From a virus (lineage: Duplodnaviria > Heunggongvirae > Uroviricota > Caudoviricetes): a stretch of 64,000 bases of DNA. Both the position numbers and the translations under genes were made by a program. The stretch covers positions 9,952-73,951 of the IMG/VR virus record IMGVR_UViG_3300029466_000004. One strand, 5' to 3'. Below the pieces are notes generated by a model, which was not told the origin of the DNA, did not search any database, and saw only the letters and a program-made list of their open reading frames with translations. Of the stretch, positions 180-61,920 are shown piece by piece; position 1 is the stretch's first letter; each line of letters opens with the position of its first letter.

Positions 180-194
180 GGAGGTAAACATTCT

Positions 195-632: not shown

Positions 633-716
633 ACCGCAAAAATCGAATCAATCAAACTGGGCAGAACTGAACAACGGATTTGGCTCTGCCCCTATTTATA
701 AAGGAGAACATTTATT

Positions 717-1064: not shown

Positions 1065-1471
1065 CCGCACAATCTCAGGAATCAGACGGAGAAGGAGAAC
1101 CGGTTTCCTTCTCCAAGCTGTTCCACGATGTAGAAGCCTATTACATCTCCATCGGTATGACATACGAACAGTTCTGGCACGGCGATGTCTGGCTGGCTAA
1201 GGTATACCGTGACGCAGAGGAGCTGCGAGAACGCAGAGCCAATGCAGAAGCGTGGAGAAATGGTTTTTACATGGCATCCGCGCTTTCCTCTACGGTTGGC
1301 AATATGTTCCGAAAGAAAGGGACTAGACCTATCAAGTACATGGATAGACCGATTCCCCTTACTCAAAAGGAGAAGGAAGAGTATGAATACCAACGTGCTG
1401 CGGAAGCACAGGAGCGAATCAAACGCATGATGTTCTCCATGATGGAAAAGGATGGTGGTAGTGATGGCTGA
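1049..1471 (+). CDS. tail assembly chaperone -1 frameshift extension (gpT-like part of the G-T fusion)
   Basis: ORF in the -1 frame overlapping the end of 717-1064; ends at the tape measure start; canonical siphovirus arrangement. Confidence 0.5.
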   Translation: MGDCVTAQSQESDGEGEPVSFSKLFHDVEAYYISIGMTYEQFWHGDVWLAKVYRDAEELRERRANAEAWRNGFYMASALSSTVGNMFRKKGTRPIKYMDRPIPLTQKEKEEYEYQRAAEAQERIKRMMFSMMEKDGGSDG

Positions 1472-4400
1472 TGTTGATATTACAAGCTTATCCGTAGAAA
1501 TCTCTGCGGAATCGCAGGGCGCAGAGCTTAATATCGACAAGCTCGCTACCGCCATTTCTAATTTGCGCACAAAGGGCAACGTGGCAAAGGTTTGCAGTAG
1601 TCTTGATAAGTTATCTGCTTCTATTTCCGCTCTTAAATCTGCATCTACTGGGCTGGACGGCCTTAGCAAAATCACGTCTTTTATGAACGGCCTTGCTAAT
1701 GTAGACCTTACTCAAAGTGCAAAGGGCATCCGCTCTGTTGCTAATGCTTTGAACAAAATTTCGTCCGTCAATCTTGGAAACATGGATTTTTCCGGACTTG
1801 GCAGCAGGATGAACAGCTTGAAGAACGGCCTTTCCCCTATTTCTTCTATTAGCGATTCTTCCATTAAGAGTTTGCGTGGCGTAAGCAGTGCAATCAATTC
1901 CATTGCTAAAATCCCAAGCATTACAAAGAAGCTGGACTCTAAAACGCTTGATGATTTTGCGGAAGTTTGTAAGAAAGTGGCATCCGCTATTTCTCCACTC
2001 GCTTCCAAACTGGACAAGGTAGGGCGCTCTTTTTCTTCACTCCCATCTAAAATTAAAAGTGCTGTCAATTCTACAACCCGCTTTTCTTCGGCAAACCAGA
2101 AAGCAAGTACTAGCCTTTCAAGTTTGGCAAGCCAGTTAGAAACCATCAAGAAACGTGCAGCACAGCTAGTTTCTCTTAAAGCTATTGCCACTTATCTTGC
2201 CAATGCCGTTACTAAGTTCAATGACTTTTATGAAGCAACAGACTTGTTCAATAACGCAATGGGCGAGTTAAGCGGTCAAGCAACAGAGCTTATCAATAAG
2301 ATGGAGTCTCTGCTTGGCATCGACCCGACAGAAGCAATGACAAATATTGCTACGATCCAAAGCCTTGCAACTTCGTTCGGTCTAGCAAGCGATAAAGCGT
2401 ATATCTTATCCAAGAACCTGACCCAACTTGCCTATGACGAATCGTCCTATTGGAATAAAGATACTGCTACCACCTTTACCGCAATTGCTTCTGCTATCTC
2501 TGGAGAACTTGAGCCTATTCGCCGTTTGGGCGTTGATCTGTCTCAGGCACGGTTACAGCAGGAACTTCTTTCTTTGGGATTTAACAAACAGGTTTCTAGC
2601 CTGTCCCAGGCAGATAAAGCAGTTCTGCGTTACATTGCCATTATGAAGCAGACCGCCAATGTGCAGGGCAACCTTGCACAGACCATTAGTAGCCCCGCCA
2701 ATATGGTACGCATTTTGAAGTCTGAAATTTCACAGCTTGCAAAAGCTGTTGGTCAGCTTCTTTATCCCGCATTTAAGGCGATTCTCCCCGTTCTGATTGC
2801 GGCAGTTGACCTTATCAAAGAATTTGTGGTCTCTCTTGCATCTGTGTTCGGACAGAAAATTGAATTTACTGATTTTAGCAAGACACAGAAAGATATTGGT
2901 GGCGTGGCCAACGCTATGGATGACACCGCCGATGCTACAAAATCGGCAGCAAAAGCAGCCAAAGACTATACGATGGGTTTTGATGAATTAAACATTATCG
3001 ACCCTTCACAAAACTCTGGTTCTTCCGGTTCTGGTGGCGGCGCTACTGGTAATTTGCTCGGTGATGTTGACCTTTCCCAGTATGATATGTTCAAAGATTA
3101 TGCTGGAAGCGCTGTTGATGAGATTAAGGCGAAATTAAAATCTCTCGATTCTTTTCAAATCGGAACCCAAATTGGTGAACAGCTAAATAAACTTATGGGC
3201 ATGATTTATGATGCCATCCATTCTGTTGATTGGGCCTCGCTTGGAGCGGTTTTTGCAGATGGCGTTAACGGGCTCGTGGATTCTGTAGACTGGGATTTAT
3301 TTGGCCGATTACTTGCAGACCGATTCATTATCGAGTTTGAGCTTCTTGGCGGCTTTCTGTCTCGGCTTGACTGGACATCTGTATTAAATGCCTTTATTGA
3401 TGGTTTTTCTGGATTCTTTCACGAACTTTCAGATTGGATAGCAACAGTAGATTGGACTGGTGTTGGGAAGCAATTAACTGATAAGCTTTCCGATGCTTTC
3501 CAAAATGTTGAGATTGAAAAGCTTGCAAGAGTTCTTTTCAACTTTATCACTGATAGCATTAACGCTGTTTCTGATTTCTTGGCTGGAACAGATTCTTACC
3601 AGCTCGGTCAAGACCTCGTTGACTTTGCTATTAGAGCCGTTACTTCTGTAGATTGGGCCGGGCTAGCTCAAGCCATAGGTCGTTTCTTTGGCGAAGCGTT
3701 CATTGAAGCGCTCGACTTCATGGGTGGTCTAGTTTCTCGAATTGCCGATTATTTTGAAAAGAAAGTAGCAGAGGGGCCGTTCGATAATGTTGGCCTGAAT
3801 ATCGTCTACGGTATTTATTACGGCATTCAAGACGCAATCACGAATGTTGCTTCTTGGATTGTTGAAAATGTGTTCAATCCGTTTATCAATGGCTTTAAGT
3901 CTGCCTTTGGAATAAATTCCCCATCTACCGTAATGGCCGAACAAGGCGGATACATTATCGCCGGATTGAAGAAAGGTATCACTGACGCTATCTCTGGCGT
4001 AACTGAAACTGCGAAGAAAATTCTTTCTGCAATCAAGAGCGCATTTGACAATTTTAGCCTTTTTGATATTGGCAAGAACCTGATTCAGGGTCTTATTGAT
4101 GGCGTGAACAACATGATTGAAACGGCCAAAAATGCTGTTGCAAATGTTGGAAACGCAGTTATCGACAAGGTTAAGAACGTTCTCGGCATCCACTCCCCTT
4201 CTACGGTGTTTGCAGAGATTGGCGGTTACATCGACCAAGGCCTTGCAAACGGCATTGCTGCGGCTGTCTCCTACGTCACCGCTGCTATGCAGGGTGTTGT
4301 AGATGCTGTGCAGGAGAAGGGACAGGCACTGATTGATGCTGGCTCTACTCAGGTTACCAGCTACGTTACCGGGTTCTTGAACGGTCTGGATACCCAGTGG

Positions 4401-5405
4401 CAGCAGATTGATCAGAGCTTACAATCTGATTTCTTTGGTAGCATCGGCACTCTGTGGGATGCGATTTCTAACGGAGACCTTGAAAAGCTCGGCACATGGG
4501 CGGCTTCCTATTTCTATCATGCAATGGATGATGAGCAGCGAAAGCAAATCAAGTCCATTGCCAATAACAGTTTGCAGTGGCTGACGCAGGGGTTGAGCAG
4601 TGTTTGGAACAACATTGCCGGTATGGCATCGAGCTTTATCAGTCAGTTCGTCCCTTCTGCTATGGCTGCAACGTCTGCTCAAACGAGTTTGAACATTGCA
4701 ATGGACGCAAACCCTGTTATGCTGGTTATTTCCTTGATTGGCATGTTGGTTGGCGCTCTTGTCAATTTTGCCAATAAGAACAAGAGCATCGCTTCGTTCC
4801 TGTCTAATCTTTGGTACGGAATCGGCGATTTCTTTTCGATTGTTTTTGAGGGGATTCTCCGCGTTCTCGGAACGGCAATTCAAGGCATCGTTGCCGGAAT
4901 AAACGTTTTAATTGATGCACGCAATTTCTTTAATCCCTTTGATAAATGGGGGCATATCAGCAACCCTCTTTATGATTGGGCTGACAATGTTAAAAGCAGT
5001 CGTGAGGAGAGCCAGCGTAAACGCCAAGAAGCAGCCAATGGCAGCTTCGATGATTCTAAAGACCAGACCGATTACGAACGGCAGTACAAGGAGCTTCTGG
5101 AAAAATACAAAAATGGTTCTTATCCTGGCACAAAAGAGTGGGATAAAAACAACGGAACATCCTCCGGCTCTTATGGCGGCACCACCAGTGTAAATGTCAA
5201 CATCAACGAAGAGGAAATGCGCGAATCTGTCTACAATGGCACTTACAACGCATTCCTCGATATCTTCCAGCGGTATGGTAACGAGCTGACCGGTGGCAAG
5301 GAACTCAAAATTTATCTTGACGGAAAGCAGATTACAGCATCTGTTGAGAAACGGCAGAACGCCCGTGGACAGTCTTTGATGGGCAGTGAGGTTTATAGCT
5401 ACTAA
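1464..5405 (+). CDS. tail tape measure protein (1313 aa)
   Basis: very long Ala/Ser/Leu-rich protein after the chaperones; N-terminus near-identical to the 57441-61523 copy, then mosaic. Confidence 0.85.
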   Translation: MADVDITSLSVEISAESQGAELNIDKLATAISNLRTKGNVAKVCSSLDKLSASISALKSASTGLDGLSKITSFMNGLANVDLTQSAKGIRSVANALNKISSVNLGNMDFSGLGSRMNSLKNGLSPISSISDSSIKSLRGVSSAINSIAKIPSITKKLDSKTLDDFAEVCKKVASAISPLASKLDKVGRSFSSLPSKIKSAVNSTTRFSSANQKASTSLSSLASQLETIKKRAAQLVSLKAIATYLANAVTKFNDFYEATDLFNNAMGELSGQATELINKMESLLGIDPTEAMTNIATIQSLATSFGLASDKAYILSKNLTQLAYDESSYWNKDTATTFTAIASAISGELEPIRRLGVDLSQARLQQELLSLGFNKQVSSLSQADKAVLRYIAIMKQTANVQGNLAQTISSPANMVRILKSEISQLAKAVGQLLYPAFKAILPVLIAAVDLIKEFVVSLASVFGQKIEFTDFSKTQKDIGGVANAMDDTADATKSAAKAAKDYTMGFDELNIIDPSQNSGSSGSGGGATGNLLGDVDLSQYDMFKDYAGSAVDEIKAKLKSLDSFQIGTQIGEQLNKLMGMIYDAIHSVDWASLGAVFADGVNGLVDSVDWDLFGRLLADRFIIEFELLGGFLSRLDWTSVLNAFIDGFSGFFHELSDWIATVDWTGVGKQLTDKLSDAFQNVEIEKLARVLFNFITDSINAVSDFLAGTDSYQLGQDLVDFAIRAVTSVDWAGLAQAIGRFFGEAFIEALDFMGGLVSRIADYFEKKVAEGPFDNVGLNIVYGIYYGIQDAITNVASWIVENVFNPFINGFKSAFGINSPSTVMAEQGGYIIAGLKKGITDAISGVTETAKKILSAIKSAFDNFSLFDIGKNLIQGLIDGVNNMIETAKNAVANVGNAVIDKVKNVLGIHSPSTVFAEIGGYIDQGLANGIAAAVSYVTAAMQGVVDAVQEKGQALIDAGSTQVTSYVTGFLNGLDTQWQQIDQSLQSDFFGSIGTLWDAISNGDLEKLGTWAASYFYHAMDDEQRKQIKSIANNSLQWLTQGLSSVWNNIAGMASSFISQFVPSAMAATSAQTSLNIAMDANPVMLVISLIGMLVGALVNFANKNKSIASFLSNLWYGIGDFFSIVFEGILRVLGTAIQGIVAGINVLIDARNFFNPFDKWGHISNPLYDWADNVKSSREESQRKRQEAANGSFDDSKDQTDYERQYKELLEKYKNGSYPGTKEWDKNNGTSSGSYGGTTSVNVNINEEEMRESVYNGTYNAFLDIFQRYGNELTGGKELKIYLDGKQITASVEKRQNARGQSLMGSEVYSY

Positions 5406-5419
5406 GGAGGTGGCGGTTT

Positions 5420-5794
5420 ATGGCGATTCCAGCACTGGTAACGGTAAACGGCGTAGAGCTGCCAGAGCCAAGCTCCTATGAAGCGACAACTAGTACCATT
5501 GTAGATTCTGGACGAAACGTTCAAGGCAAAGTAGTCGGCTCTGTTGTGCGGCATGATGTAGCAAAGGTGTCCCTGAAGTGGAACTACCTCACCGCACAGC
5601 AGTGGGCCGCTATCCTCAGCCTGTTCACGACACGATTTTACTGCACTGTTCGCTTTTATAATCAGGCAAAGGCCGGGTATGATACGCGGCAGATGTACGT
5701 TTCAGACCGCACATCTGGTATGTGGCGGCGTGGGCCGAAAACCGGCAATGTGATGGGCTGGACGGATTGCTCGATTGCGCTTGTGGAGGTGTAG
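5420..5794 (+). CDS. small tail protein (post-tape-measure position)
   Basis: GGAGG RBS; homolog at 61530-61916; position after tape measure. Confidence 0.4.
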   Translation: MAIPALVTVNGVELPEPSSYEATTSTIVDSGRNVQGKVVGSVVRHDVAKVSLKWNYLTAQQWAAILSLFTTRFYCTVRFYNQAKAGYDTRQMYVSDRTSGMWRRGPKTGNVMGWTDCSIALVEV

Positions 5795-5797
5795 CCT

Positions 5798-7405
5798 ATG
5801 GTACAACCTTCTCAGAAGTGGGTTGAAAAGTTCTCCGAAACGCTTGTACCGGAGATGTTTGTACGCATCACCTATGGCGTTACGGAACCGGGTCTGCAAG
5901 AAGATGCAATTCCTAGCACAAACGGCGAAACATTCTTCAGCAATGTATCCTCTATTGTTGACAGTAAATTGCAGACTTACACAAAATATTCTACTGGTGA
6001 ATTGAATTTCACTGTTTTGGACGGCAATTATACCTTGCTAGACAAAAACGTGGAATTACAAGAAGCTGGTTACGTTAGTGAAAATTGCGTTTCGATTTCA
6101 AACCACCCGATCATTACGCTCTCGTTCAGCAAAGTTCATACCGTGACGATTCCTGGCATTACCATTACATGGTCGTCAACATTCAATGAATGGCCAACAA
6201 GTTTCAAGCTGACTGCTTATTCTGGAAGCACAGTCGTATCTACCAAAACGGTGTCGGACAATTCTTCTATCACCACTGACATTGACTTTGAAATTGCAAA
6301 TTACGATTCCATTTCCATTCAAATCTTGTCGTGGTGTTTGGAAAATCGGCGTGCACGAGTTGAGCAGGTAAAACTGGGCCAATTCATTGTGTTTGAGAAG
6401 AAAGACATCTTTTCGTATAAGCATGATTCCACAAGAGACCCGATCAGCGGACAACTTCCGAATGATAGCATTACTTTTACGGTGGATAACAGCACACAGA
6501 AGTGGAATCCAATAAACCCGGAAGGCCTTTACAAATACCTATACGAGCGTCAGCCTATCTCTGTGGAGTACGGCATGGACTTGGACGGAACGGTAGAATG
6601 GATTACAGGCGGCAAGTTCTTCTTGTCTGAATGGAATGTTCCATCTAATAGTATCGAAGCCAGCTTTACCGCCCGTGATGCTTTTGGCTATCTTATGGTT
6701 TCCAACTACACAGGAAGAATGTACGGCACTCTTTATGAGATGGCCTACGATGCGCTGGAGCTTTTGAGCGATAACGTGGCAACGTTTCAGATTTCCGATG
6801 AACTGAAACAATATAGCACGGATATCACAAAGCAGGATAAAGGCAACTATAAGGATTCTGATATTTTACAGATGGTTGCCAACGCAGCTGGCATGGCGAT
6901 GTATCAAACCAGAGAAGGCGTGATCGTAATCGGTCGCATTCCTGATATCTCTACTGCAAAAGCAAACATTGCCGGTGAAATTGATATTGTCAACAACTTC
7001 AGCTGGCCTGAAATTGCATTTTCTTCCCCTTTGAAAAATGTAACCTGTTCGATTGATGTGAAATCTTCCGATGGCTCGAGCACTACAAGCAAAACGTATT
7101 CTTACCCAGAAAACCCGGCAGGGGGTGGAGCAACGCAGACTGTCAACAATGAAATGCTGTCTCAAAGCATTCTCGGCCAAAGCAGGAATATTTTGACAGA
7201 AGCGTACAAAGTGCTTTCCAACCGCCGCAAGGTCACATTGGAATATCGTGCAAGCCCGCACTTTGATGCGCTGGATTACGTCCTTGTTCATCACCAGTTC
7301 GGCTATTCCTCTGTACTGCTGACTACAAGTTTTTCTTATCAGTATTCCGGCTGTTTTCACGGGACGGTCGAAGGGTATCTCTTGGAAGGAGCTGATGTTC
7401 GTTGA
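5798..7405 (+). CDS. distal tail / baseplate protein (535 aa)
   Basis: position after tape measure; homolog begins at 61921 with a longer C-terminus. Confidence 0.45.
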   Translation: MVQPSQKWVEKFSETLVPEMFVRITYGVTEPGLQEDAIPSTNGETFFSNVSSIVDSKLQTYTKYSTGELNFTVLDGNYTLLDKNVELQEAGYVSENCVSISNHPIITLSFSKVHTVTIPGITITWSSTFNEWPTSFKLTAYSGSTVVSTKTVSDNSSITTDIDFEIANYDSISIQILSWCLENRRARVEQVKLGQFIVFEKKDIFSYKHDSTRDPISGQLPNDSITFTVDNSTQKWNPINPEGLYKYLYERQPISVEYGMDLDGTVEWITGGKFFLSEWNVPSNSIEASFTARDAFGYLMVSNYTGRMYGTLYEMAYDALELLSDNVATFQISDELKQYSTDITKQDKGNYKDSDILQMVANAAGMAMYQTREGVIVIGRIPDISTAKANIAGEIDIVNNFSWPEIAFSSPLKNVTCSIDVKSSDGSSTTSKTYSYPENPAGGGATQTVNNEMLSQSILGQSRNILTEAYKVLSNRRKVTLEYRASPHFDALDYVLVHHQFGYSSVLLTTSFSYQYSGCFHGTVEGYLLEGADVR

Positions 7406-18951: not shown

Positions 18952-20073
18952 CTATTTCAAGAAGCTATCATCAAACGTAGCATAATCGTCAAGGTCTGCA
19001 TCTTTCAAAATTGAATACATATAAGCGCCGGGGTCTTTTTCAATCCTATCAAGTCGCTCGCTGACAAGAATCCTGTATGCATTCTCAATGATGTTCACAA
19101 CAGCTTCTTTTTTCTTGTTGGGCTTGATGTTCGGATACTTCTCCGGCAATCTCTTTGCCACCAGCTTTGCGGTCAAGATACACTGGCTTTTAGACATCTC
19201 CGGCGCAATAGATGCCCAATCAACATCCTCGTATGCGCCGCTGCGGGGCTTTCTGGCAGGTCGTTGGCTCTTTGGAACATCTTTTAGCTCTACGCTTTCA
19301 ACCTCGTTAGCTTCCACGTCTATGACTGGCTCATTAGACTTGAAAGCTACATTGAACTTTACAGCAACCGCATTGCGACCTCTCATAACCTTGTCATATT
19401 CAACGCACAGGTCTGATACTTCGTTTATTTCAGCTACCGCAATATCAATGACACGCCGCCTAAGATGCTTGAACTCTTGATAGCTAGGTTCTCTTGCACC
19501 AAGCTGTTCCCTTAATCTATCCAACGTAATTTCGGGCTGGCTCACGCCACGTCCGATGAACTCTCGGAGAATTGAATACAGCAAAATGCTATACTGCGAT
19601 TTCATATTCGCTGTGTAGCGCAAGCGATACTTGACATATCCACGCTCTGCAATGTCGAAGAAAACGGGTTGTAGAAGTGGGTTACAGCACAACGACACAG
19701 TAATGTTCATCAAACTAGGTTCAAAATTTACAGTTGCTCTGCTGAACAGGGGATACAGGTCAAACGAGCCTGAACCGTCACCTCTAGGAACTTCAACAGA
19801 GTTGTCGATGAAATGCTTAACCTGTGCTTTCAAATTCCTAGAGTTGATTTTTAACCCTAAAAATTCGCAATATTCTTGTAACGTAAACTGAACCGTTGAA
19901 GTTTCGGGGTCTCTCGGATTGATACGGCTAAGATACACTTCAAGCAGCCGAAGCTCTCCTGCTGTATAGTCAGTGAACTTTGCCCAAACAAGCTGTCTGC
20001 TTTTTTCAACCAAGTTCCCGCCTTTAATATCAGACAATCCTATCACGCCTCCTCTCGTATAAGAGTATATCAC
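18952..20073 (-). CDS. replication initiator protein (plasmid RepA/Rep_3-like, winged-helix)
   Basis: 373 aa; N-terminal wH-like region; immediately downstream of an iteron array and AT-rich region. Confidence 0.55.
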   Translation of the reverse strand: MIYSYTRGGVIGLSDIKGGNLVEKSRQLVWAKFTDYTAGELRLLEVYLSRINPRDPETSTVQFTLQEYCEFLGLKINSRNLKAQVKHFIDNSVEVPRGDGSGSFDLYPLFSRATVNFEPSLMNITVSLCCNPLLQPVFFDIAERGYVKYRLRYTANMKSQYSILLYSILREFIGRGVSQPEITLDRLREQLGAREPSYQEFKHLRRRVIDIAVAEINEVSDLCVEYDKVMRGRNAVAVKFNVAFKSNEPVIDVEANEVESVELKDVPKSQRPARKPRSGAYEDVDWASIAPEMSKSQCILTAKLVAKRLPEKYPNIKPNKKKEAVVNIIENAYRILVSERLDRIEKDPGAYMYSILKDADLDDYATFDDSFLK

Positions 20074-22155: not shown

Positions 22156-22485
22156 TCACATCTTCTCGATCAGGTTCATCAGCGCTTCACGCTGCGCTGT
22201 CGGCATAGATTCAAGCTTTTTTCTAATCCGCTCCACTGCTGCATCGACTTCACTTTGTGGCTGCTGGGGCGGGTTTTCTTTTTGCTCGCCAGAAACCAAA
22301 GCATCCACGCTTGTTTCAAAATAAGAAGCTATCTTATCAAGCGTTTCATATTTCAATGTTTGCTTTCTTCCGTTCTTCAAATCGGTCAAAGACCCACGGC
22401 TTGCGCCCGATTCCTTGCACATAGTGGTCACGTTTACTCCACGCTGCTTGCAGAGTTTTTCAATATTTTCGTACAAGTTTGCCAT
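22156..22485 (-). CDS. XRE-family HTH repressor (short CI-like)
   Basis: CKQRGVNVTTMCKESGASRGSLTDLKNGRKQ HTH; divergent from the Cro-like gene. Confidence 0.6.
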   Translation of the reverse strand: MANLYENIEKLCKQRGVNVTTMCKESGASRGSLTDLKNGRKQTLKYETLDKIASYFETSVDALVSGEQKENPPQQPQSEVDAAVERIRKKLESMPTAQREALMNLIEKM

Positions 22486-22661
22486 AATTCCAGTCCTCGC
22501 ATTGTAAGGTTTGCTGAAATTACGCGAACGCTTAAAAAGGTCTTGCATTTTACGCGAAAGCGTATTATACTAAGACCGTACCGCGAAGGCGTAATGAATG
22601 ATTTCTAGCAACTTCATTATATTACACTTATGCGTAAAAATCAATAGCCGGAGGTGAAATA
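22486..22661. promoter_or_regulatory. genetic switch region with three operator palindromes (TTACGCGAA-GCGTAA consensus)
   Basis: aattacgcgaacgcttaa, ttttacgcgaaagcgtatta, taccgcgaaggcgtaa between divergent repressor and cro-like genes. Confidence 0.5.
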
Positions 22662-30738: not shown

Positions 30739-31491
30739 ATGGCAACACCTCCGAAGCGTGGTCGTGGTAGACCGCCACTGACCGAAGCTGAAAAGAAAAA
30801 GCGTGAGAAGCGGGCGCAAAAGTCGAAAGAAGAAGCCGCTGCGAAGCGTGAGAAAGAGCGAGAGAAGAAAAAACAACAGATGCTTAACAAGCGGAAATCT
30901 ATCCGATCACAGGTGAGTAAAAAGGTGAAAGAACAACAGGAGTTAGCGATTACGAGGTCTAAGATGCTGAACACAGGCGATTTGCAGTCAAGAATCGGCG
31001 ATGAAGAAGACAAGAAGGTTATCGGCATGATTGCCGCAAAGTATTTTGGCGACCTTCCGAGCGTGGACATGAACAACCCCATTGAAGTGCAGCAACGTCT
31101 TGACTTCTTCTTTGACGCTTGCATCGAAGCCAGAATCTCCCCTGTGGTGGAATGGATTGCATTGGTTCTTGGCATCGAATGGCCTAGCCTGAGACAGATT
31201 ATGACAGGCAAACGCCGTGACGACAGCTTGCAGCAGAAGTACATCTTGAAGCTGATTCTGCAAATGCAGTCCATGTGGGCATACAACGGTATGTATGGTC
31301 AGGAGAACCCGGCAGAGTGGATTTTCCGAGCCAAGAACTACTTTGGTATGCGTGACAACGTGGAAGTCACCGTTGCGCCGCCTGAACAGCCGTTGGGCGA
31401 TGCCCAGAGCGCAGAACAACTCGCCCAGAAGTACCAGACGGCTTTGCCGAAAGGGATTGACGTAGAGTACAGAGAGGTAGCGGAAAAATGA
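30739..31491 (+). CDS. DNA-binding protein with N-terminal GRGRPP (AT-hook-like) basic region
   Basis: MATPPKRGRGRPPLTEAEKKKREK..., Lys/Glu-rich coiled coil, C-terminal globular domain. Confidence 0.35.
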   Translation: MATPPKRGRGRPPLTEAEKKKREKRAQKSKEEAAAKREKEREKKKQQMLNKRKSIRSQVSKKVKEQQELAITRSKMLNTGDLQSRIGDEEDKKVIGMIAAKYFGDLPSVDMNNPIEVQQRLDFFFDACIEARISPVVEWIALVLGIEWPSLRQIMTGKRRDDSLQQKYILKLILQMQSMWAYNGMYGQENPAEWIFRAKNYFGMRDNVEVTVAPPEQPLGDAQSAEQLAQKYQTALPKGIDVEYREVAEK

Positions 31492-31571
31492 AAGAACTCA
31501 TAACTTTCTTCTTATTATCTTGGGCGGTTGCTTTTTTGATTATCAACAATTTTAACGATAAGGAGTAAAAC

Positions 31572-32435
31572 ATGAAAAAGGTAGCAACTATTATTTCTTC
31601 TGTGGTAGCAGCGTTTTTTGTTGCAGTGGTTCTTTTGCTGTGTTTGGAGAGAGTGCCTGTTGGGTATGTCGGCGTTGTTTATTCCGCACGAGGTGTTGAG
31701 CAGAACACTTTGTCGCAGGGCTGGCACTTCCTCTCGCCGATGAAACACGTTAGCAAGTTCCCTATCAGCCAGCAGCAGCTAATTTTTTCAGATGACCCAG
31801 CAGATTATAACGCAAAAGAACACGCAGATTGGCACATTGATGCTCCTGCAAGCGGTGGAATGGTTGGAGTAAACCTTACCGTAAATTATAACTTCATTCC
31901 AGACCGTGTTGTTGAACTTTACAGCCGTTTTAATGGGATGGATGGCGAAACGCTTGTCGAAAGCCGTATTCAGAACAGCATTATCGCCTATGTCAAGGAA
32001 GTTACGCCACAGTTTTCTGTGATGGACATTTACTCCGAAAAGAAAACGGAAGTAAACAACGCAATCACAAACTATTTGAATGAAAAGCTTACCAATGAAT
32101 ACGGAATCAACGTTTCAAGTGCCCTCGTGATTGACGTAGAGTTGGATGACACCCTCACCGAAAAGATTAGAGCGAAAGAACAAGCAAAGCAGGACGCAGA
32201 GATTGCTGAACTGAACAAGCAGACCGCTCTTGCACAGGCTGAAACAGACAAGGTAAAGGCTCAAGCGGAAGCCGATGTGAAAGTGATCGAAGCTCAAGCA
32301 GAAGCCGAATCGAACCGTATTGTGTCTGAATCCATCACACCTGAACTGATTCAGATGAAAGAAGCTGAAGCCAGACTGAAGCACGGATGGGTCACTGTCA
32401 ATGGAGCAGATACAGTCGTAACAAAAGCTGATTGA
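31572..32435 (+). CDS. SPFH/band-7 (stomatin/prohibitin-like) membrane protein
   Basis: N-terminal TM; PVGYVGVVYSARGVEQNTLSQGWHFLSPM band-7 core; C-terminal Ala/Glu/Gln coiled coil. Confidence 0.65.
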   Translation: MKKVATIISSVVAAFFVAVVLLLCLERVPVGYVGVVYSARGVEQNTLSQGWHFLSPMKHVSKFPISQQQLIFSDDPADYNAKEHADWHIDAPASGGMVGVNLTVNYNFIPDRVVELYSRFNGMDGETLVESRIQNSIIAYVKEVTPQFSVMDIYSEKKTEVNNAITNYLNEKLTNEYGINVSSALVIDVELDDTLTEKIRAKEQAKQDAEIAELNKQTALAQAETDKVKAQAEADVKVIEAQAEAESNRIVSESITPELIQMKEAEARLKHGWVTVNGADTVVTKAD

Positions 32436-32516: not shown

Positions 32517-32717
32517 ATGAAAATCATTACATATCCTGACGGTCGTTCGGAACAGGTTGGAACGCCATTAGAACTAGCGCAGTTCATGTTTGGCTTGATT
32601 GAATATCAAACTGTGCAGAAGTTCAAGAATCTGATTGATTCTATTCCACAGCAGATTGAAAGACCAAATAAAAAACGCGCACCTAAAAAGAAAGCAGGAG
32701 AATCTAATGCAAACTGA
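32517..32717 (+). CDS. hypothetical small protein
   Basis: ORF with RBS. Confidence 0.3.
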   Translation: MKIITYPDGRSEQVGTPLELAQFMFGLIEYQTVQKFKNLIDSIPQQIERPNKKRAPKKKAGESNAN

Positions 32718-32907
32718 CAGAGGAATCTACCACAAGAGAGTATGCGACCGCTGCGGAGCGGTTCTTGGCAGCAGGATGATGAACCCTGACGAATACTTCA
32801 AGGACTGGGCGTGGCGCAGGGACACAGGCGACTTGTGTCCGGAGTGCTATGCAGAGTATAAGCGAGTGATCGGGCGGTTCAATGCCAACAGAAGGAGGAA
32901 AAAATGA
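32707..32907 (+). CDS. zinc-ribbon mini-protein (CDRCG...CPEC), paralog 1
   Basis: tandem paralog set with 4-nt overlaps. Confidence 0.35.
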   Translation: MQTDRGIYHKRVCDRCGAVLGSRMMNPDEYFKDWAWRRDTGDLCPECYAEYKRVIGRFNANRRRKK

Positions 32908-33110
32908 GAATTAACGGCATGATGTTTGTTTGCAACAGATGTGGGGAAAAGGTGTTCGCAGAACGGTATAACGATGGCGAGTTCGATTGGAAAGCGTTAC
33001 AAGGTTGGGAAACCGGCTTGGGAAGCTTTTTCAACGTTGGAGAACTGTGCCCTGAATGCCGTGAAGAATACGGAAAACTGATGCAAAAATTTATGGGGGA
33101 TAAGAAGTGA
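32904..33110 (+). CDS. zinc-ribbon mini-protein (CNRCG...CPEC), paralog 2
   Basis: paralog of the upstream ORF. Confidence 0.35.
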   Translation: MRINGMMFVCNRCGEKVFAERYNDGEFDWKALQGWETGLGSFFNVGELCPECREEYGKLMQKFMGDKK

Positions 33111-33331
33111 TGCTTTACGGAGTTTATCGGTGCAAACAGTGTGGCGCAGTCCTTAACGCTGAAAACGAGCTTGACGGTATTTTTGAAGATGGTCTGAAAT
33201 TTGCTTTCATAAATGAGAACCCGATCATCTCCATTTCACCCTACAAGAGTTCTGGTAAAGCTATTGCTCACCGATGCAATGATTCGACCATAGGAATGTG
33301 TGAGCTGATAGGCTGGAGGAAAATCAAATGA
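33107..33331 (+). CDS. zinc-ribbon mini-protein (CKQCG...), paralog 3
   Basis: tandem array member. Confidence 0.3.
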   Translation: MMLYGVYRCKQCGAVLNAENELDGIFEDGLKFAFINENPIISISPYKSSGKAIAHRCNDSTIGMCELIGWRKIK

Positions 33332-33570
33332 ACTTCTATTGCACCACCGAACATTGCTCTTGCATGGGCATCAAACAGTTCTCTGCTGGCAAAGTCATCC
33401 GATGCACGGCAGAATCCTGCAAGAACAAATCTGAGCCGTTCTGTGGCTCTTGCAAATGGTACGCAGAGTCGGAGGGCGTGTGCGTGAACGACCAGTCAGA
33501 ACACGTTGCAGACTTCGTGTGGAACGAACGCGGATGCAAGGAATGGGAGAAGAAAGATGAGCGAAAGTAA
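33328..33570 (+). CDS. Cys-rich mini-protein (CGSCKW...CKEWEKK), family 2 paralog 1
   Basis: shares its C-terminal motif with the next ORF. Confidence 0.3.
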   Translation: MNFYCTTEHCSCMGIKQFSAGKVIRCTAESCKNKSEPFCGSCKWYAESEGVCVNDQSEHVADFVWNERGCKEWEKKDERK

Positions 33571-33772
33571 TGTAATCAGGCTGGGCAATGGCATTCTACT
33601 GGACAGCAAAGGGAAACTTTTATGCCAAACTGTGGACAAGTCCTGCTCAAACTGTAAATGGCACGACAGATTCTCGTGGGTCTGTTACAACGGTCTGTCT
33701 GAGTGCCGGGCTGATTTTACAGACCCAGAAGATGTGTGCAAAGAATGGGAGAAAAGAGAAAATGACAGCTAA
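33557..33772 (+). CDS. Cys-rich mini-protein (CSNCKW...CKEWEKR), family 2 paralog 2
   Basis: paralog of the upstream ORF. Confidence 0.3.
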   Translation: MSESNVIRLGNGILLDSKGKLLCQTVDKSCSNCKWHDRFSWVCYNGLSECRADFTDPEDVCKEWEKRENDS

Positions 33773-46143: not shown

Positions 46144-47358
46144 TTGAAAGCAATTTACGGTAAATATGCGTCTGCAAAGGTTTTTACGGACAATATTGAA
46201 GATAAGGCATCCGAGCAGATTCTAACGCTTTGCAATCAGAGCTTTGTTGATGGATGCAAGATTCGCATTATGCCAGACGTTCATGCTGGCTCTGGGTGCG
46301 TAATTGGGTTTACGGCAGACTTGGGAAAGAAAGTTATTCCCAATATTGTCGGCGTTGACATTGGCTGCGGAATGCTTGTTGCTGAACTCGGAATTGAACA
46401 TATTGACCCGGAAAAACTGGACAAAGTGATTAGAGAACGAGTTCCGGCTGGAATGAATGTTCACGAATCGCAGAAAATGTCGGATGCTTTCCTCCGTCAG
46501 CTTGATTGCAAAGATAGCCTTCATAATGTTGACTGGATTCTTCGCAGCATGGGCACTTTGGGCGGCGGAAATCATTTTATCGAGCTGGACGAAGATGAAG
46601 AGAAAAACCAGTACCTTGTTATCCATACTGGAAGCAGGAATCTCGGTAAACAAGTTGCAGAATATCATCAAAACGTAGCAATTTCTAATATCAAAGGAAA
46701 GAACAAAAGAAAAGAAGCTACGGAACGACTGATTGAGGAACTGAAAAAGCAAGGCCGTGAACAGGAAATTTCGAAAAAAATCAAAGAGCTGGATGTTCAG
46801 TTCCCCGATATTCCGAATGAGCTTTGCTATCTTGAAGGGAAAGAACGTGATTCTTACCTTAACGATATGCGGATTTGTCAGGCATTTGCGAAAATGAATC
46901 GGGCAAGAATTATGCATACCATTTTAGACGGCGTTGGAATAAATTCTATACTGACCCATGCGTCCTTCTTTGAAACCGTTCATAACTATATTGATGAATC
47001 GGATGATATTATCCGAAAAGGCTCTGTATCCGCTAGAGATGGTGAGAAGCTGATTATTCCTCTTAATATGAGAGACGGAAGCCTTATCTGTGTTGGCAAG
47101 GGCAATCCTGATTGGAATTTCTCTGCTCCGCATGGAGCTGGTAGGCTGTATAGTAGAACAGCGGCTAAAAAAGCATTCAGCGTTGAAGAATATCAAAAGC
47201 AGATGAACGGAATTTACACTACCTCAGCCGATGAATCCACGTTAGATGAATGCCCGATGGCATATAAGCCAGCACAGGAGATTATCAACGCAATCTCCCC
47301 AACAGTTGATATTGTAAAACACATTAAGCCCATTTACAATTTCAAAGCGGGAGAATAA
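46144..47358 (+). CDS. rtcB: RtcB-family RNA 3'-phosphate ligase
   Basis: MPDVHAGSGCVIG, VGVDIGCGM, GGGNHFIELDED, HTGSRNLG, PHGAGR motifs; TTG start with GGAAAGGAG RBS. Confidence 0.85.
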   Translation: MKAIYGKYASAKVFTDNIEDKASEQILTLCNQSFVDGCKIRIMPDVHAGSGCVIGFTADLGKKVIPNIVGVDIGCGMLVAELGIEHIDPEKLDKVIRERVPAGMNVHESQKMSDAFLRQLDCKDSLHNVDWILRSMGTLGGGNHFIELDEDEEKNQYLVIHTGSRNLGKQVAEYHQNVAISNIKGKNKRKEATERLIEELKKQGREQEISKKIKELDVQFPDIPNELCYLEGKERDSYLNDMRICQAFAKMNRARIMHTILDGVGINSILTHASFFETVHNYIDESDDIIRKGSVSARDGEKLIIPLNMRDGSLICVGKGNPDWNFSAPHGAGRLYSRTAAKKAFSVEEYQKQMNGIYTTSADESTLDECPMAYKPAQEIINAISPTVDIVKHIKPIYNFKAGE

Positions 47359-49765: not shown

Positions 49766-49842
49766 CACAGAGTGGAGCAGTCTTGTAGCTCGTCGGGTTC
49801 ATAGCCCGAAGGTCGGTGGTCCAAATCCATCTTCTGTGCCCA
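49766..49842 (+). tRNA. tRNA with CAT anticodon (Met/fMet/Ile2-type), CCA encoded
   Basis: hand-folded cloverleaf: acceptor CACAGAG/TTCTGTG, D-stem GAGC/GCTC, anticodon stem TCGGG/CCCGA with loop TTCATAG, T-stem GGTGG/CCATC, discriminator C plus CCA; atypical D- and T-loops (no G18G19). Confidence 0.5.
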
Positions 49843-55758: not shown

Positions 55759-56156
55759 TTGATTATTTCAATTCCATCTACACGGCTGTTGCTAAGGAAC
55801 TGCGAAAGCAAGTTCCCGGTATCTTCGTTACTAGCGAAATTAGTGACAGCCCTGTTAAGAGGTTTCCGTGTGTGCAGATAGAGGAAAATAACAATTTGCC
55901 TGTGCATCTTGATTCTGCCGATCACAGCAAGTACGCCGCCGTTTCCCTGCGTGTGCGTGTCTACTCTAACAAGAACCCCGGGCGCAGTGCAGAAGCACGC
56001 TTTATTGTTGGAATCGTGGATTCTGTTCTCGAACCCAAAAAGTTCTATCGCAAATCGTTTGCCCCGTTGAATGGGCTGTACAACAATTCCGTCTATCGGA
56101 TTGATTGCAGCTATGGGGCAACAATCGGAGAGGACGGAATGATTTACCGAAACTAA
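55755..56156 (+). CDS. tail terminator / tail completion protein
   Basis: immediately upstream of the major tail protein; C-terminus homologous to 1-179. Confidence 0.4.
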   Translation: MIDYFNSIYTAVAKELRKQVPGIFVTSEISDSPVKRFPCVQIEENNNLPVHLDSADHSKYAAVSLRVRVYSNKNPGRSAEARFIVGIVDSVLEPKKFYRKSFAPLNGLYNNSVYRIDCSYGATIGEDGMIYRN

Positions 56157-56171
56157 GGAGGTAAACATTCT

Positions 56172-56609
56172 ATGAGTACTGCTATCTCCGGTCTGAATAC
56201 CACCCTGTATTGTGGTGCTACCGAGTCTGCATTGACGAAGTTGTGTGACATCAAGGATGTCCCGGATATGATTTCCGATCCGAACCTTCTGGATGCCACC
56301 ACCCTGTCTGATCCGATGCAGAAGCAGATTTTTGGTATTAACCAGTCCGATATTAAGGCGTTTACCGCAAACTACAACAAGGAAGATTACGAATCGGTTC
56401 AGAAAGCTGGCTACGATGAATCTGCCGAAGAGAACCCCGACAAGTACTATGCAATTAAGATGCAGGACGGCTCCGGATTCACTTGGCAGGGTATGCATCA
56501 GGTTGGTCTGTCCGGCTTTGGCGTGGATGAGGTTGTGGAAATGACCATCAACTGCATTTTCCACACCAAGCCGAAGTTCGTTAAGGCGCTGACCATCAAC
56601 GGCGGCTAA
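56172..56609 (+). CDS. major tail protein (second copy)
   Basis: ~85% aa identity to 195-632. Confidence 0.55.
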   Translation: MSTAISGLNTTLYCGATESALTKLCDIKDVPDMISDPNLLDATTLSDPMQKQIFGINQSDIKAFTANYNKEDYESVQKAGYDESAEENPDKYYAIKMQDGSGFTWQGMHQVGLSGFGVDEVVEMTINCIFHTKPKFVKALTINGG

Positions 56610-56693
56610 ACCGCAAAAATCGAATCAATCAAACCGGGCAGAACTGAACATTGGATTTGGTTCTGCCCCTATTTATAAAGGAGAGCATTTATT

Positions 56694-57041
56694 ATGGCTG
56701 CAAAGGTTATCAATTATCATTCCCCCGATGGCAAGAACACTTATGAACTAACTTTCACCCGTGACAGCGTGGAAGCCGCCGAACGTGCAGGTTTTCAGAT
56801 TGGTCAGTACACCCAGATGATCAATCTGCTGTCCAACTCCCGTGCTCTGTTCTACGGCGCTTTCATTGCACGGAACAAGGGCATCAAGCGCAAGGACGTT
56901 GACGAGATGTTCCAGCATACCGAGGAGAAGGAAGAACTGATGGGCATTTTGCTTGAGATGTTCATGGATGCTTCTAAGTCTCTGCTGGCGACTGACACTG
57001 AGGACAAGACCGCAAAAAACGCAACGTGGGAGATTGTGTAA
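56694..57041 (+). CDS. tail assembly chaperone (gpG-like)
   Basis: homolog of 717-1064; conserved slippery AAAAAAC. Confidence 0.6.
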   Translation: MAAKVINYHSPDGKNTYELTFTRDSVEAAERAGFQIGQYTQMINLLSNSRALFYGAFIARNKGIKRKDVDEMFQHTEEKEELMGILLEMFMDASKSLLATDTEDKTAKNATWEIV

Positions 57042-57448
57042 CCGCACAATCTCAAGAATCAGACGGAGAGGGAGAACCGTTTTCCTTCTCCAAGCTGTTC
57101 CACGATGTAGAAGCCTATTACATCTCCATCGGCATGACCTACGACCAGTTCTGGTACGGCGATGTCTGGCTGGCTAAGGTATACCGTGACGCAGAGGAGC
57201 TGCGAGAACGCAGAGCCAATGCAGAAGCATGGAGAAACGGTTTTTACATGGCATCTGCGCTTTCCTCTACGGTTGGCAATATGTTCCGAAAAAAAGGGTC
57301 TAGCCCCATCAAGTACATGGATAGACCGATTCCCCTTACTCAAAAGGAGAAAGACGAGTATGAATACCAACGCGCAGTTGAAGCGCAGGAGCGAATCAAG
57401 AGAATGATGTTCTCTATGATGGAAAGTGATGGTGGTAGCGATGGCTGA
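57026..57448 (+). CDS. tail assembly chaperone -1 frameshift extension (gpT-like)
   Basis: homolog of 1049-1471. Confidence 0.5.
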   Translation: MGDCVTAQSQESDGEGEPFSFSKLFHDVEAYYISIGMTYDQFWYGDVWLAKVYRDAEELRERRANAEAWRNGFYMASALSSTVGNMFRKKGSSPIKYMDRPIPLTQKEKDEYEYQRAVEAQERIKRMMFSMMESDGGSDG

Positions 57449-60400
57449 TGTTGATATTACGAGCTTATCCGTAGAAATCTCTGCGGAATCGCAGGGCGCA
57501 GAGCTTAATATCGACAAGCTCGCTACCGCCATTTCTAATTTGCGGACAAAGGGCAACGTGACAAAGGTCGTCAACAGCCTTGATAAGCTGTCCGCTTCCA
57601 TTTCTGCGCTGAAACAGGCGTCTGCTGGCCTGTCTGGGCTGGACAAAATCACCAGCTTTTTGAATGGAATTTCCAATGTCAACACGACTGCAAGCACAAA
57701 GAGCATCAACACGGTCGTAAATGCAATCAAGAAGATTCCTACGGCAGTCTCCGGCTTGAACGGCGTGGACTTCTACTCCATGTCTGGAAGCATTACTCAG
57801 CTCACCAACGCTTTGGCTCCGCTGTCTATTTTGGACGCATCAAACCTTAAAGCTCTTGGCAGCGCTTTCAATGCGATCGGAAAAGTTCCTGATCTGACCG
57901 ACAAGCTGAAAGCAACAGACCTTGATTCTTTTGCAAGCTCTTGTCAGAAGATTTCTGCTGCCCTTACTCCCCTTGCATCTCAGCTTGACAAGGTTGGCAA
58001 CGCTTTTGCAAAGCTGCCGCCGCAGTTGAGCAAGGTGGTCACACAGGCAAACCGTGTGACTGCTGCCAACGAACGACAGAAAAAAAGCTATCTCAGCCTG
58101 TCTAACCAGCTGAATGGTTTCATGCTGTCTGCGAAAAAGCTGGTTTCGCTGAAAGCTATTGCTGAGTATCTTGGCAAAGCTGTTGCGAAATTCAATGACT
58201 TTTACGAAGCGACAGACCTGTTTCATAATGCTATGGGCAATTTGAGCGGTGAAGCAGATACGCTCATTAGCAAGATGCAAGGCCTGCTTGGAGTTGACCC
58301 GACCAAAGCGATGACCTACATGGCCACCATCCAGAGCTTAGGTACTTCGTTTGGTTTGGCCAGCGACAAAGCTTACGTTCTGTCTAAGAACCTGACTCAG
58401 CTTGCCTATGACGAAGGTTCCTATTGGAACAAGGACGTTGCAGAAACCTTTACCGCAATGTCTTCCGCAATCTCTGGCGAGATTGAGCCTATTCGCCGTT
58501 TGGGCGTTGACTTGTCTCAAGCACGGTTACAGCAGGAGCTTCTTGCTTTAGGCTTTAACAAACAGGTTTCTAGTCTGTCTCAGGCAGATAAGGCGGTTCT
58601 GCGTTACATTGCCATTATGAAGCAGACTGCCAACGTGCAGGGTAATCTTGCGCAGACCATCCAAAGCCCTGCGAACCAGATTAAGATTCTGAAAGCTCAA
58701 CTTGATATGTTGGCAAAGTCTGTTGGTTCTCTGCTCTACCCTGCCATGAAATCCATTCTTCCTCCGCTGATTGCCGCCGTGCAGCTCATTCGAGAGTTCG
58801 TTGAATGGGTGGCAAAGCTGATGGGTGTGAAGGTCGTGTTCACTGATTTCACCAAGAGCGCTGACAGTGTTGGCGGTATCGGCGACGCAATGGATAATAC
58901 AGCCGATTCGACAAAGAAAGCCGCCAAAGCCCTCAAGGACTACACGATGGGCTTTGATGAATTGAACATCATTGACCCCACACAGGGAAGCTCTGGCTCT
59001 GGCAGCGGCGCATCTGCTGGCAACATCTTGGGCGATGTAGACCTGTCCGGCTACGATATGTTCAAGCAGTACAATGAAGAGTTTGCAAAGCAGATTGACG
59101 CTATAAAGCAGAAAATCAAAGATATGCTGCCGGTTATTGGCGCTATTTCTGCTGCACTCGCATTGTGGAAAATCACCAATTTCCTGACGAACATTGCAAC
59201 AGCAATTTCTAAAATGACGGATTTGCAAAAGTTGGCTCTTTCGATTGCAACAGTTGTTGTCGAAGCATCGTTAGTATTCAGTTTTGCAAAAGGCTACGCA
59301 TCTAGTGGAAATCCTCTTGAGCTTTTAGGCGAAGTGGTGTCTGCTGCGTTTGGCTCTTTTGTTCTTTGGCGCACAATGGGCGCGGATGGCGTTACGCTTG
59401 GCATGGGCATCGCTTTTGTGGCGAGCCTTGCAGGTCTTACTTATGCACTTGGTACTGGCGAAGCCAATCTTGGCGATGCAAGCACATGGATTCAGGCTGC
59501 TTTAACAACGGCATTCGGTTCTATTACTGGTATCACACTGCTCACCAATCTTGGAGCAGCCTCTGGTACAGCCGCAACGCTTTCTATCGGTCTTGCAGGT
59601 CTTATTACCTTTGCGGGAATTACATTCTCGCTTGGTGAAAAGCTGAAAGAATTTCCCGTTCTTGACACCATCATCACTGCTCTGATGGGGATTTTTGGCG
59701 GTGCTGCTGGTGCTGGCGTTGCATTGCTTGTTGGTGCAAGCCTTCCTGTTGCTGGGGCCGTTGCCGCTGCTGGTGTCGGTATTGGCCTTGTTCTTCACTG
59801 GGCTGGTATCAAATGGGGCGCTAAAGAGAGCGGCGAAAAAACAGATGCTGCCGCAGAAGCCGACATTAAAATGCATTATGTCGAAAATGTTTTTGAGCAG
59901 CGTATCGATGCCATCAAACAAATCATTGTCACTAAGTGGAACGCTGTCATTGACTTTATGACTTCTCTGCCTGAAAAGGTTGGGAACATCGTAAGTAGCA
60001 TTGGCGAGTGGTTCAGCTCTCTTCCTGAAAAAATCGGCTATGCCCTTGGCTTTGCCGTCGGCAAAATCGGGGAGTGGGTCGAAAACATGATCGTTACTGT
60101 AACAACCGAAGTTCCAAAAATCGTTTCGTCTGTTGTTAAGTTTTTTGAAGAACTGCCGGGGAATATTTGGACTGCAATTCTCAAAGCTCTTGACGTTATT
60201 TCTAAATGGCGGGAGCGCATGATAGCTTTCGTTGTTATTGAAGTTCCAAAAATCATTTCGTCTATTGTCGGCGAGTTCAAAAAGCTTCCTGACAAATTGA
60301 GAAAGCTTGGAAAATTCATCTGGGATGGCCTAATCAACGGCCTAAAAGATGCATGGAGTACCGTTACAAATGGTATTAAGAGCTTCACTGATGGCTTTGT

Positions 60401-61523: not shown

Positions 61524-61529
61524 GAAAGG

Positions 61530-61916
61530 ATGGTTCAGATGGCCAATATTCCTGCACTGGTTACGGTGAATGGCGTAGAGCTGCCGGAACCCTCCTCTTA
61601 TGAGGGAACGACTAGCACGATCGTGGACTCTGGGCGAAATGTTCAGGGTAAAGTTGTTGGCGCTGTCGTACGACATGACGTAGCAAAAGTCTCCATGTCA
61701 TGGAACTACCTCACCGCACGGCAGTGGGCCGACATCTTGAGTCTTTTCACTACGAATTTTTACTGCACTGTTAAATTCTATAACCAAGCCACAGCCGGTT
61801 ATACCACCCGTCAGATGTACGTCTCCGACCGCACCGGCGGAATGTGGCGTAGAGGGCCGAAAACCGGTGGCGTGATGGGATGGACGGGGTGCAAACTTTC
61901 TCTTGTGGAGGTATGA
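61530..61916 (+). CDS. small tail protein (homolog of 5420-5794)
   Basis: ~80% aa identity. Confidence 0.4.
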   Translation: MVQMANIPALVTVNGVELPEPSSYEGTTSTIVDSGRNVQGKVVGAVVRHDVAKVSMSWNYLTARQWADILSLFTTNFYCTVKFYNQATAGYTTRQMYVSDRTGGMWRRGPKTGGVMGWTGCKLSLVEV

Positions 61917-61920
61917 CACA

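Follow-up and report, generated by a model that had tools for sequence, protein, structure and literature searches.

The gene at positions 31572..32435 (+ strand) of a 64,000-nucleotide stretch of viral DNA (Caudoviricetes; positions 9,952 to 73,951 of the IMG/VR record IMGVR_UViG_3300029466_000004; the whole stretch is hereafter called the window) encodes a membrane-anchored SPFH/band-7 protein that, judging from profile comparisons and from its structural model, is of the prohibitin type, and not an HflC, a stomatin or a flotillin. The gene does not constitute a new kind of element: it is an ordinary, already annotated member of a large phage SPFH family, and its carrier is a temperate-type Clostridia gut phage of ~56 kb. 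As for its function, the best explanation, held here with moderate confidence, is that of a prohibitin-type SPFH scaffold that would form a cage at the outer surface of the cytoplasmic membrane and act there, during lytic growth, on host membrane proteins.

Protein architecture and subfamily assignment

The open reading frame (ORF) comprises 287 codons plus a stop, starts with ATG and carries, 6 nt before this start, the sequence AAGGAG (31560..31565), which is graded as a strong ribosome-binding site from the sequence letters; this site and all the protein features given below lie on the + strand. The ORF is far from a chance one. Besides being called in the ORF list, it is matched by both Pfam Band_7 and the PHROG family phrog_200, and its ratio of nonsynonymous to synonymous substitutions (dN/dS) with respect to one 98%-identical relative is 0.027 (dN 0.007, dS 0.276), which denotes strong purifying selection; in relatives whose protein identity is 62-77%, synonymous sites have reached saturation. 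The Band_7/SPFH domain (PF01145) covers residues 27-226 (31650..32249), with E=9.6e-23 and 81.6 bits vs a gathering cutoff of 23.6, so that the band-7 identity proposed in a previous sequence-only reading of this DNA is confirmed by a hidden Markov model (HMM). The protein has a single hydrophobic segment, at residues ~4-25 (31581..31646; Kyte-Doolittle maximum of 3.0 over 19 residues), preceded by MKK and ending at a Cys residue, Cys24, which is invariant in the clade of close relatives.

An AlphaFold2 monomer model built on a 64-sequence alignment reached a mean predicted local distance difference test (pLDDT) of 91.8 and a predicted template modelling score of 0.76; it replaced an earlier model from 18 close homologues (>=76% identity), discarded at a pLDDT of 61.8 and with residues 24-95 unmodelled. 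In the retained model, a transmembrane helix (residues 2-24) passes straight into the first β-strand of the SPFH domain, with no linker in between, and the domain itself adopts an α/β fold at pLDDT >90. The membrane anchor and the band-7 core that had been read from the sequence are recovered alike by hydropathy, Pfam, the model and its Foldseek matches. A 62-residue helix follows, rich in Ala, Glu, Lys and Gln (residues 193-254, 32148..32333), and in the model it is the apparent counterpart of the CC1 coiled coil that makes the cage wall in SPFH proteins. The long coiled coil of the sequence-only reading is thus present as a long helix, and its coiled-coil character is suggested by the alignment to the prohibitin coiled coil and by the fold matches; a simple count of heptad periodicity on residues 190-270 did not decide this point in either direction. 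The protein ends in a second helix (257-271) and a Gly-rich, β-like tail (together 32340..32432), holding the motif MKEAEARLKHGWVTV at residues 262-276. The tail has a low pLDDT in the monomer model, compatible with a strand that would pair between subunits. The C-terminal motif, MKEAEARLKHGWVTVQG, is kept even at 32-46% overall identity: it is invariant in the close clade, present in the homologues of Clostridium phage Amboise and Streptococcus phage phi3396, and found in 14 out of 96 diverse full-length representatives. By analogy with solved SPFH cages, the motif may form an inter-subunit cap.

Which kind of SPFH protein is it? When a family profile of 64 sequences was compared with the sequences in the PDB, prohibitin came first (E=7.8e-26 to 5e-23), followed by erlin (~1e-15; 1.6e-15), QmcA (6e-10), HflK (2e-9), HflC and stomatin (~1e-6; stomatin 2e-6) and flotillin (7e-5). 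The structural comparison led to the same relative, since the top Foldseek match of the model was the human prohibitin complex 8rrh (8rrh_A and 8rrh_B, E=7e-15), with the erlin, HflK/C, stomatin, QmcA and flotillin cages, and the vault shoulder too, behind it (all, prohibitin included, at probability 1.00). Together with the failure of the HflC model (see below), these two rankings point to a prohibitin-type protein. The resemblance to PHB1/PHB2 (8rrh, 9o9z, 9unl, 9urz) extends over a single-pass N-terminal anchor, the SPFH domain, the long coiled coil and a C-terminal segment, and would include the side of the membrane as well, if the prediction that puts the soluble part on the trans side holds for the phage protein (the intermembrane space in one case, the outside of the bacterial cytoplasm in the other). 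However, identity to PHB is only ~17-18%, prohibitins form an obligatory PHB1/PHB2 pair where the phage has one gene, and the C-terminal KHGWVTVQG motif is specific to the phage and bacterial clade. The link of prohibitins to AAA+ proteases would be, for the phage protein, a hypothetical one drawn by analogy.

Other labels were considered and rejected. The name HflC, given to this protein or to its close relatives in public annotations, is over-specific, since the NCBIfam equivalog TIGR01932 (hflC) scores 17.3 bits vs a cutoff of 134.4. HflK/HflC, the modulator of FtsH (7vhp, 7wi3, 9cz2), shares with the phage protein the superfamily, the predicted N-in/C-out topology and, presumably, a cage-type architecture, but its profile E-values are 15-20 orders of magnitude weaker than those of prohibitin and there is no HflK/HflC pair: the neighbours are orf250, encoding a small-terminase-like (TerS-like) protein, and small ORFs with no SPFH domain, and a second SPFH gene was found neither in the window nor in any of the related loci examined. 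Stomatin and QmcA, which come with an NfeD partner (8z5g, 3bk6), have the same fold and form a homo-oligomeric cage, as the phage protein may do, whereas the phage gene has a weaker profile match to them and no adjacent NfeD; the stomatin-NfeD operon was discarded on the basis that Pfam finds no NfeD domain in ten neighbouring ORFs, nor in related contexts. QmcA, moreover, faces the cytoplasm, opposite to the topology predicted for the phage protein. As for SPFH proteins of defence systems, the best PADLOC match was NsnC, at E=0.067 and 10.6 bits. Finally, PHROG labels the family "lipoprotein", and Cys24 could be taken for a lipidation site, but the residues before and at it read VLLLC, and LLL, VL, IT or II precede it in the close clade (L, I or T at position -1), none of which makes a canonical lipobox (the pattern tested was [LVI][ASTVI][GAS]C closing a signal peptide); even under a permissive pattern, just 12 of the 96 relatives show a lipobox-like motif.

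Membrane topology and conserved residues

An N-terminal hydrophobic helix is present in 88 of the 96 diverse relatives, and in 59 of those 88 Lys and Arg are richer on its N-terminal flank, vs 11 with the reversed bias (Wilcoxon p=7.6e-6). Following the positive-inside rule, this charge bias predicts an N-in/C-out anchor, with the SPFH domain and the helices outside the cytoplasm. Prohibitin and HflK/C have a non-cytoplasmic SPFH domain, while the stomatin, QmcA and flotillin types face the cytoplasm.

Two features stand out within the clade of the window protein. Cys24 (31641-31643), at the outer end of the transmembrane helix, is invariant in 18 close relatives and missing in the Amboise and phi3396 homologues. 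A His/Asp-rich loop, KEHADWHIDAP (residues 82-92, 31815-31847), is likewise invariant in the close clade and partly kept in Amboise. Metal binding, disulphide formation or acylation are possibilities for these residues.

Genomic context and mobility

The sequence-only reading had taken the gene as phage-encoded, and this holds: TerL, portal, major head and tape-measure genes are found in the same element, which also carries Rha/ANT, ERF, resolvase and DnaB, and in the metagenome contigs and isolate genomes the homologue is in every case part of a phage or prophage replication module. A minus-strand block at ~16.7-22.5 kb contains a NikA-like gene (16740-17366), ParA (17883-18653), a replication-initiator gene (18952-20073) and two genes of Cro/CI-type helix-turn-helix (HTH) proteins. 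None of the large ORFs at 10-23 kb of the window was recognized as an integrase, and the element may be maintained as a phage-plasmid instead of integrated. The HTH repressor gene at 22156-22548 (minus strand) and a Rha/ANT array starting at 22897 (+ strand) form a divergent switch, from which the + strand array runs to ~38.6 kb through Rha/ANT, ERF, a Holliday-junction resolvase, a PAPS-reductase-like gene, orf250, the SPFH gene, small ORFs, DUF6291 and DnaB.

The SPFH gene is therefore co-directional with, and placed inside, the replication/early array, 9 kb downstream of the switch. The early operon of the sequence-only reading is borne out as far as a long replication array is concerned, with "early" resting on position only. 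A scan for promoters and terminators around the gene stayed at chance (14 vs 12.1 expected and 12 vs 9.9 expected), so that nothing marks it as a self-contained moron.

The same placement recurs in relatives. In Clostridium phage Amboise the homologue lies between an exonuclease and an RNA ligase/DNA polymerase III α gene, in the replication module; in Streptococcus phage phi3396 the homologue, phb1, is in the replication module too; and in all ten metagenome contexts examined the SPFH gene belongs to a co-directional replication module. Four isolate genomes also carry a homologue (Gemmiger gallinarum, Blautia celeris, Mediterraneibacter hominis and Clostridiaceae bacterium Marseille-Q4145), next to an integrase, a Sak annealase, a methyltransferase, a replication initiator and a primase/helicase, neighbours that identify those loci as prophages. 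Blautia celeris NSJ-34 has two SPFH copies at two loci on two contigs (L027 and L029), with a prophage-like context in L027; co-resident prophages may each bring their own copy.

No partner gene is conserved across 54 loci, and no gene of the window travels with the SPFH gene. The modules around the homologues differ as well (RecT or ERF, DnaB or IstB-like, different terminases), and the G+C content at third codon positions (GC3) of the SPFH gene is 0.451 vs 0.55-0.68 in core phage genes. Taken together, the absence of a travelling neighbour, the differing modules and the lower GC3 indicate that the gene behaves as a single-gene cassette moving among mosaic phages.

The only recurrent neighbour, and only in the close clade, is orf250 (30739..31491, + strand), directly upstream; in relatives of >=98% identity it always holds this place while the outer flanks vary, and in more distant phages it is unlinked. 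Its product is small-terminase-like (GP3_package-like), with a Lys/Glu-rich N-terminal half. It has no Pfam, PHROG or PDB sequence match, and over the C-terminal 140 residues it shares 34% identity (E=3e-15) with a GP3_package protein whose gene, in another phage (L006), adjoins TerL. The TerL gene of the window phage has no visible small-terminase gene next to it, and orf250 may encode, from these similarities, a displaced TerS or a TerS-derived DNA-binding protein. On the other side, just 3' of the SPFH gene, 32635-33772 holds five small ORFs (68-90 codons) rich in paired cysteines, among them two apparent paralogue pairs (CxxCG...CPEC and C..CKW...CKEWEK) with a zinc-ribbon-like look and no family assignment.

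Distribution and previous descriptions

The match to phrog_200 (E=1.2e-54, residues 2-281) places the protein in a family that is widespread in phages. Of 50,697 deposited phage records searched by tblastn, 518 contain a homologue, distributed by organism name among phages of Staphylococcus (275), Enterococcus (53), Bacillus (52), haloarchaea (26) and Streptococcus (18), with fewer records for Salmonella, Escherichia, Aeromonas, Cronobacter and others. Going by these names and by general knowledge of the groups, most of the 518 carriers appear virulent. None of the deposited phage homologues exceeds 60% identity, the best being that of Amboise (46%). In BFVD, many phage and giant-virus Band-7 models match the structure. 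An exhaustive search of 1.84 billion cluster representatives returned 2704 clusters at E<=1e-3, 52 of them at E<=1e-30.

The exact protein is already public, with the JGI label [quoted passage not shown], and 560 proteins make up its 90% cluster. NCBI nr contains one of these under the title [quoted passage not shown]; this member occurs in at least 1000 contigs and 2093 indexed blocks of public assemblies, many of the contigs being 54-59 kb long. By megablast, only unannotated "Bacteriophage sp." contigs of human faecal origin were retrieved, at 88-93% identity. Genomes of gut Oscillospiraceae and Lachnospiraceae contain relatives at 56-76% identity, and this suggests that the host belongs to the Clostridia.

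Phage SPFH/Band-7 ORFs have been noted in genome papers since 2006, among them those on T4-like phages (PMC1524935) and on Vi01-like phages (PMC3220722). In Kayvirus, mbpS lies between lysK and tgl, beside a holin-like gene, and has been proposed to aid the Sec-dependent export of the Tgl lysin (PMC7150955). An SPFH gene of Burkholderia phage CSP3 was accompanied by a guess on HflC and lysogeny (PMC10269572), and one in a Pseudomonas satellite prophage by a guess of the FtsH/lysogeny type (PMC4936722). The full-length match of the window protein is to the phrog_200 family, to which Kayvirus MbpS, phi3396 Phb1 and the Amboise "lipoprotein" belong; the family also includes the Band-7 ORFs of the T4-like phages RB43, 44RR and Aeh1 and of the Vi01-like phages. 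With Amboise and phi3396 it shares the order of transmembrane anchor, SPFH domain and helix, the C-terminal KHGWVEVQ motif and the position in the replication module. It differs from the named proteins, to which identity is <=46%, in the invariant Cys24 and KEHADWHIDAP loop of its clade, and from Kayvirus also in location, since mbpS is in the lysis region (PMC7150955) and not in a replication module.

Proposed mechanism and alternatives

If the protein is a prohibitin-type scaffold of the lytic cycle, its anchor would be inserted N-in, leaving the SPFH domain and the helices on the outer face of the cytoplasmic membrane, where it would assemble, as every solved SPFH relative does, into a homo-oligomeric ring or cage, closing off part of the membrane. 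Being made with the early/middle and replication genes during lytic growth, the cage would enclose at least one host membrane protein and alter its access to substrates or partners to the benefit of the phage. The weakest step of this account is the client. An FtsH-type AAA+ protease would be the best-precedented one, and it is favoured because the nearest relatives, prohibitin and HflK/C (of the same topology), regulate such proteases. The assignment to the lytic cycle is favoured for three reasons: the gene lies among replication genes and points the same way as they do here, in Amboise, in phi3396 and in the ten metagenome contexts; no flanking promoter or terminator signal exceeds chance; and most carriers appear virulent, something that a role in lysogeny only would not explain. 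The action appears to be exerted with host factors and not with a phage partner, since there is no conserved neighbour in the 54 loci and no NfeD gene nearby. A bolder version of the scaffold, that of a phage-borne, prohibitin-like cage on the outer face that captures, early in infection, a host membrane machine, be it the FtsH protease or a defence effector acting on the membrane, and thereby represents a viral takeover of the prohibitin/HflKC-AAA protease axis, is speculative and rather doubtful.

Several points weigh against the scaffold account. Its oligomerization, topology, timing and client are all inferred, and prohibitin and HflK/C are hetero-oligomers of two paralogues, while the phage has a single gene. 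The invariance of Cys24 and of the KEHADWHIDAP loop is accounted for neither by a cage nor by any of the rival explanations. The lysis-region location of mbpS in Kayvirus (PMC7150955) implies that members of the family may differ in role. Lastly, no experimental functional work on a phage SPFH protein was found in the searchable literature, which offers annotations and guesses only, and a paper from 2026 still states that the reason "remains unclear".

Among the alternatives, the tuning of FtsH for the lysis-lysogeny decision is unlikely. According to it, the protein would work on host FtsH in the manner of HflK/C in phage lambda, so that a phage regulator (CII/CIII-like or a repressor) is stabilized or degraded, biasing the outcome towards lysogeny or induction. 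That HflK/C and prohibitin, with the same predicted topology, are among the closest relatives speaks for it, as does the temperate type of the element, with its CI/Cro-like HTH regulators and Rha/ANT, and the same guess appears in public annotations and in the two papers on Burkholderia and Pseudomonas elements cited above (PMC10269572, PMC4936722). However, the HflC equivalog fails (17.3 bits vs 134.4), there is no HflK/HflC gene pair, and the gene sits among replication genes, 9 kb away from the genetic switch. Moreover, phages that appear virulent by name have no lysogeny decision to take, and, as they make up most of the carriers, a role restricted to lysogeny is unlikely to be general.

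The early position, similar to that of many anti-defence genes, has also to be weighed with regard to counter-defence or membrane protection, the role suggested in the sequence-only reading, in which the cage would steady the membrane or sequester pore-forming abortive-infection effectors. Host SPFH proteins do take part in membrane-stress responses, an example being YdjI/SamI of B. subtilis, through which PspA is connected with the membrane (PMC8581546; bioRxiv 10.64898/2026.02.06.704340), and the mobile-cassette behaviour and the GC3 below that of core phage genes would fit such a role. Nevertheless, PADLOC gives no match (the best being the NsnC one at E=0.067), the 54 loci show no link to known anti-defence genes or defence hotspots, and an extracytoplasmic SPFH domain could reach only the transmembrane or outer parts of the effectors. 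The protein is, in addition, conserved across hosts, unlike the usual fast-evolving genes of an arms race, and on balance this explanation, for which nothing specific was found, has a low probability.

A similarly low probability is given to a helper function in lysis or secretion, as proposed for Kayvirus MbpS, with the scaffold organizing the holin, the endolysin or Sec-dependent export and setting in this way the timing of lysis. It draws on the position of mbpS between lysK and tgl, near a holin-like gene (PMC7150955), and Kayvirus homologues are indeed detected by tblastn, but in the window, in Amboise, in phi3396 and in the gut-phage contexts the gene belongs to the replication module, far from the tail/lysis end, and no holin or endolysin neighbour is conserved in the 54 loci. 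Superinfection exclusion or lysogenic conversion, that is, a prophage-made protein on the outer membrane face that blocks the DNA entry of incoming phages, is very improbable: it would suit a predicted extracytoplasmic anchored protein, like the exclusion proteins of the Ltp and Sie types, and could appeal to the PHROG label "lipoprotein" and to the invariant Cys24 at the end of the hydrophobic stretch, but there is no canonical lipobox before this Cys (and a lipobox-like motif in 12 of 96 relatives), the gene lies outside the lysogeny module, co-directional with lytic genes and flanked by promoter and terminator signals at chance level only, the accessory genes, including a separate Sie-like one (41700-42317), are located elsewhere in a mixed-orientation region, and the family is common in phages that appear virulent by name.

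Other features of the window

Positions 55979-57707 repeat the first 1.7 kb of the window at 88% identity, after which the identity falls to 73%, 72% and 68%; this similarity (window 1-7000 vs 55979-64000) runs through two different tape-measure genes, at 1452-5405 and 57426-61523, whose products share 65% amino-acid identity in their N-terminal half. Due to this repeat, the window corresponds to about 1.14 periods of a ~56 kb genome, representing either a tandem of two related phage genomes or an assembly that went round a circular genome into a strain variant. Between 10000 and 16000 the G+C content is 0.556 vs 0.476 in the remaining window, and the large ORFs 10343-11221, 13644-14759 and 14752-15180 (all on the minus strand) have no Pfam or PHROG match, DUF7841 at 15222-15860 being the only family match among the large ORFs of this segment, which looks like compositionally foreign cargo at the junction of two phage-like genomes.

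The accessory region at 38-46 kb, of mixed orientation, contains several ORFs without a family match, the Sie-like superinfection-exclusion candidate mentioned above (phrog_8545, E=5e-8) and a second anti-repressor of the Ant/Rha type (42722-43534, minus strand). Immediately upstream of TerL there is an RtcB-type RNA ligase gene (46144-47358; phrog_1075, E=5e-133), and just downstream of TerL a tRNA-Met gene (49766-49842), followed by the portal, major head protein and tape-measure genes. RtcB and tRNA-Met could be a tRNA-repair/tRNA-supply pair directed against host anticodon nucleases.

Concluding remarks

At least 518 deposited phage genomes, and giant viruses too, carry SPFH genes, and the copy described here rides a very prevalent human-gut phage lineage of ~56-59 kb. 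The analysis sharpens the target for functional work, namely a protein that, according to its sequence and model, is of the prohibitin type, probably faces outwards, lacks a phage partner and is encoded among early/replication genes. The discovery of a client such as FtsH would provide a general explanation for this recurrent phage gene; and the takeover of a host axis by a prohibitin-like cage, if true, would account for the recurrence of SPFH genes in hundreds of unrelated phages and in giant viruses.

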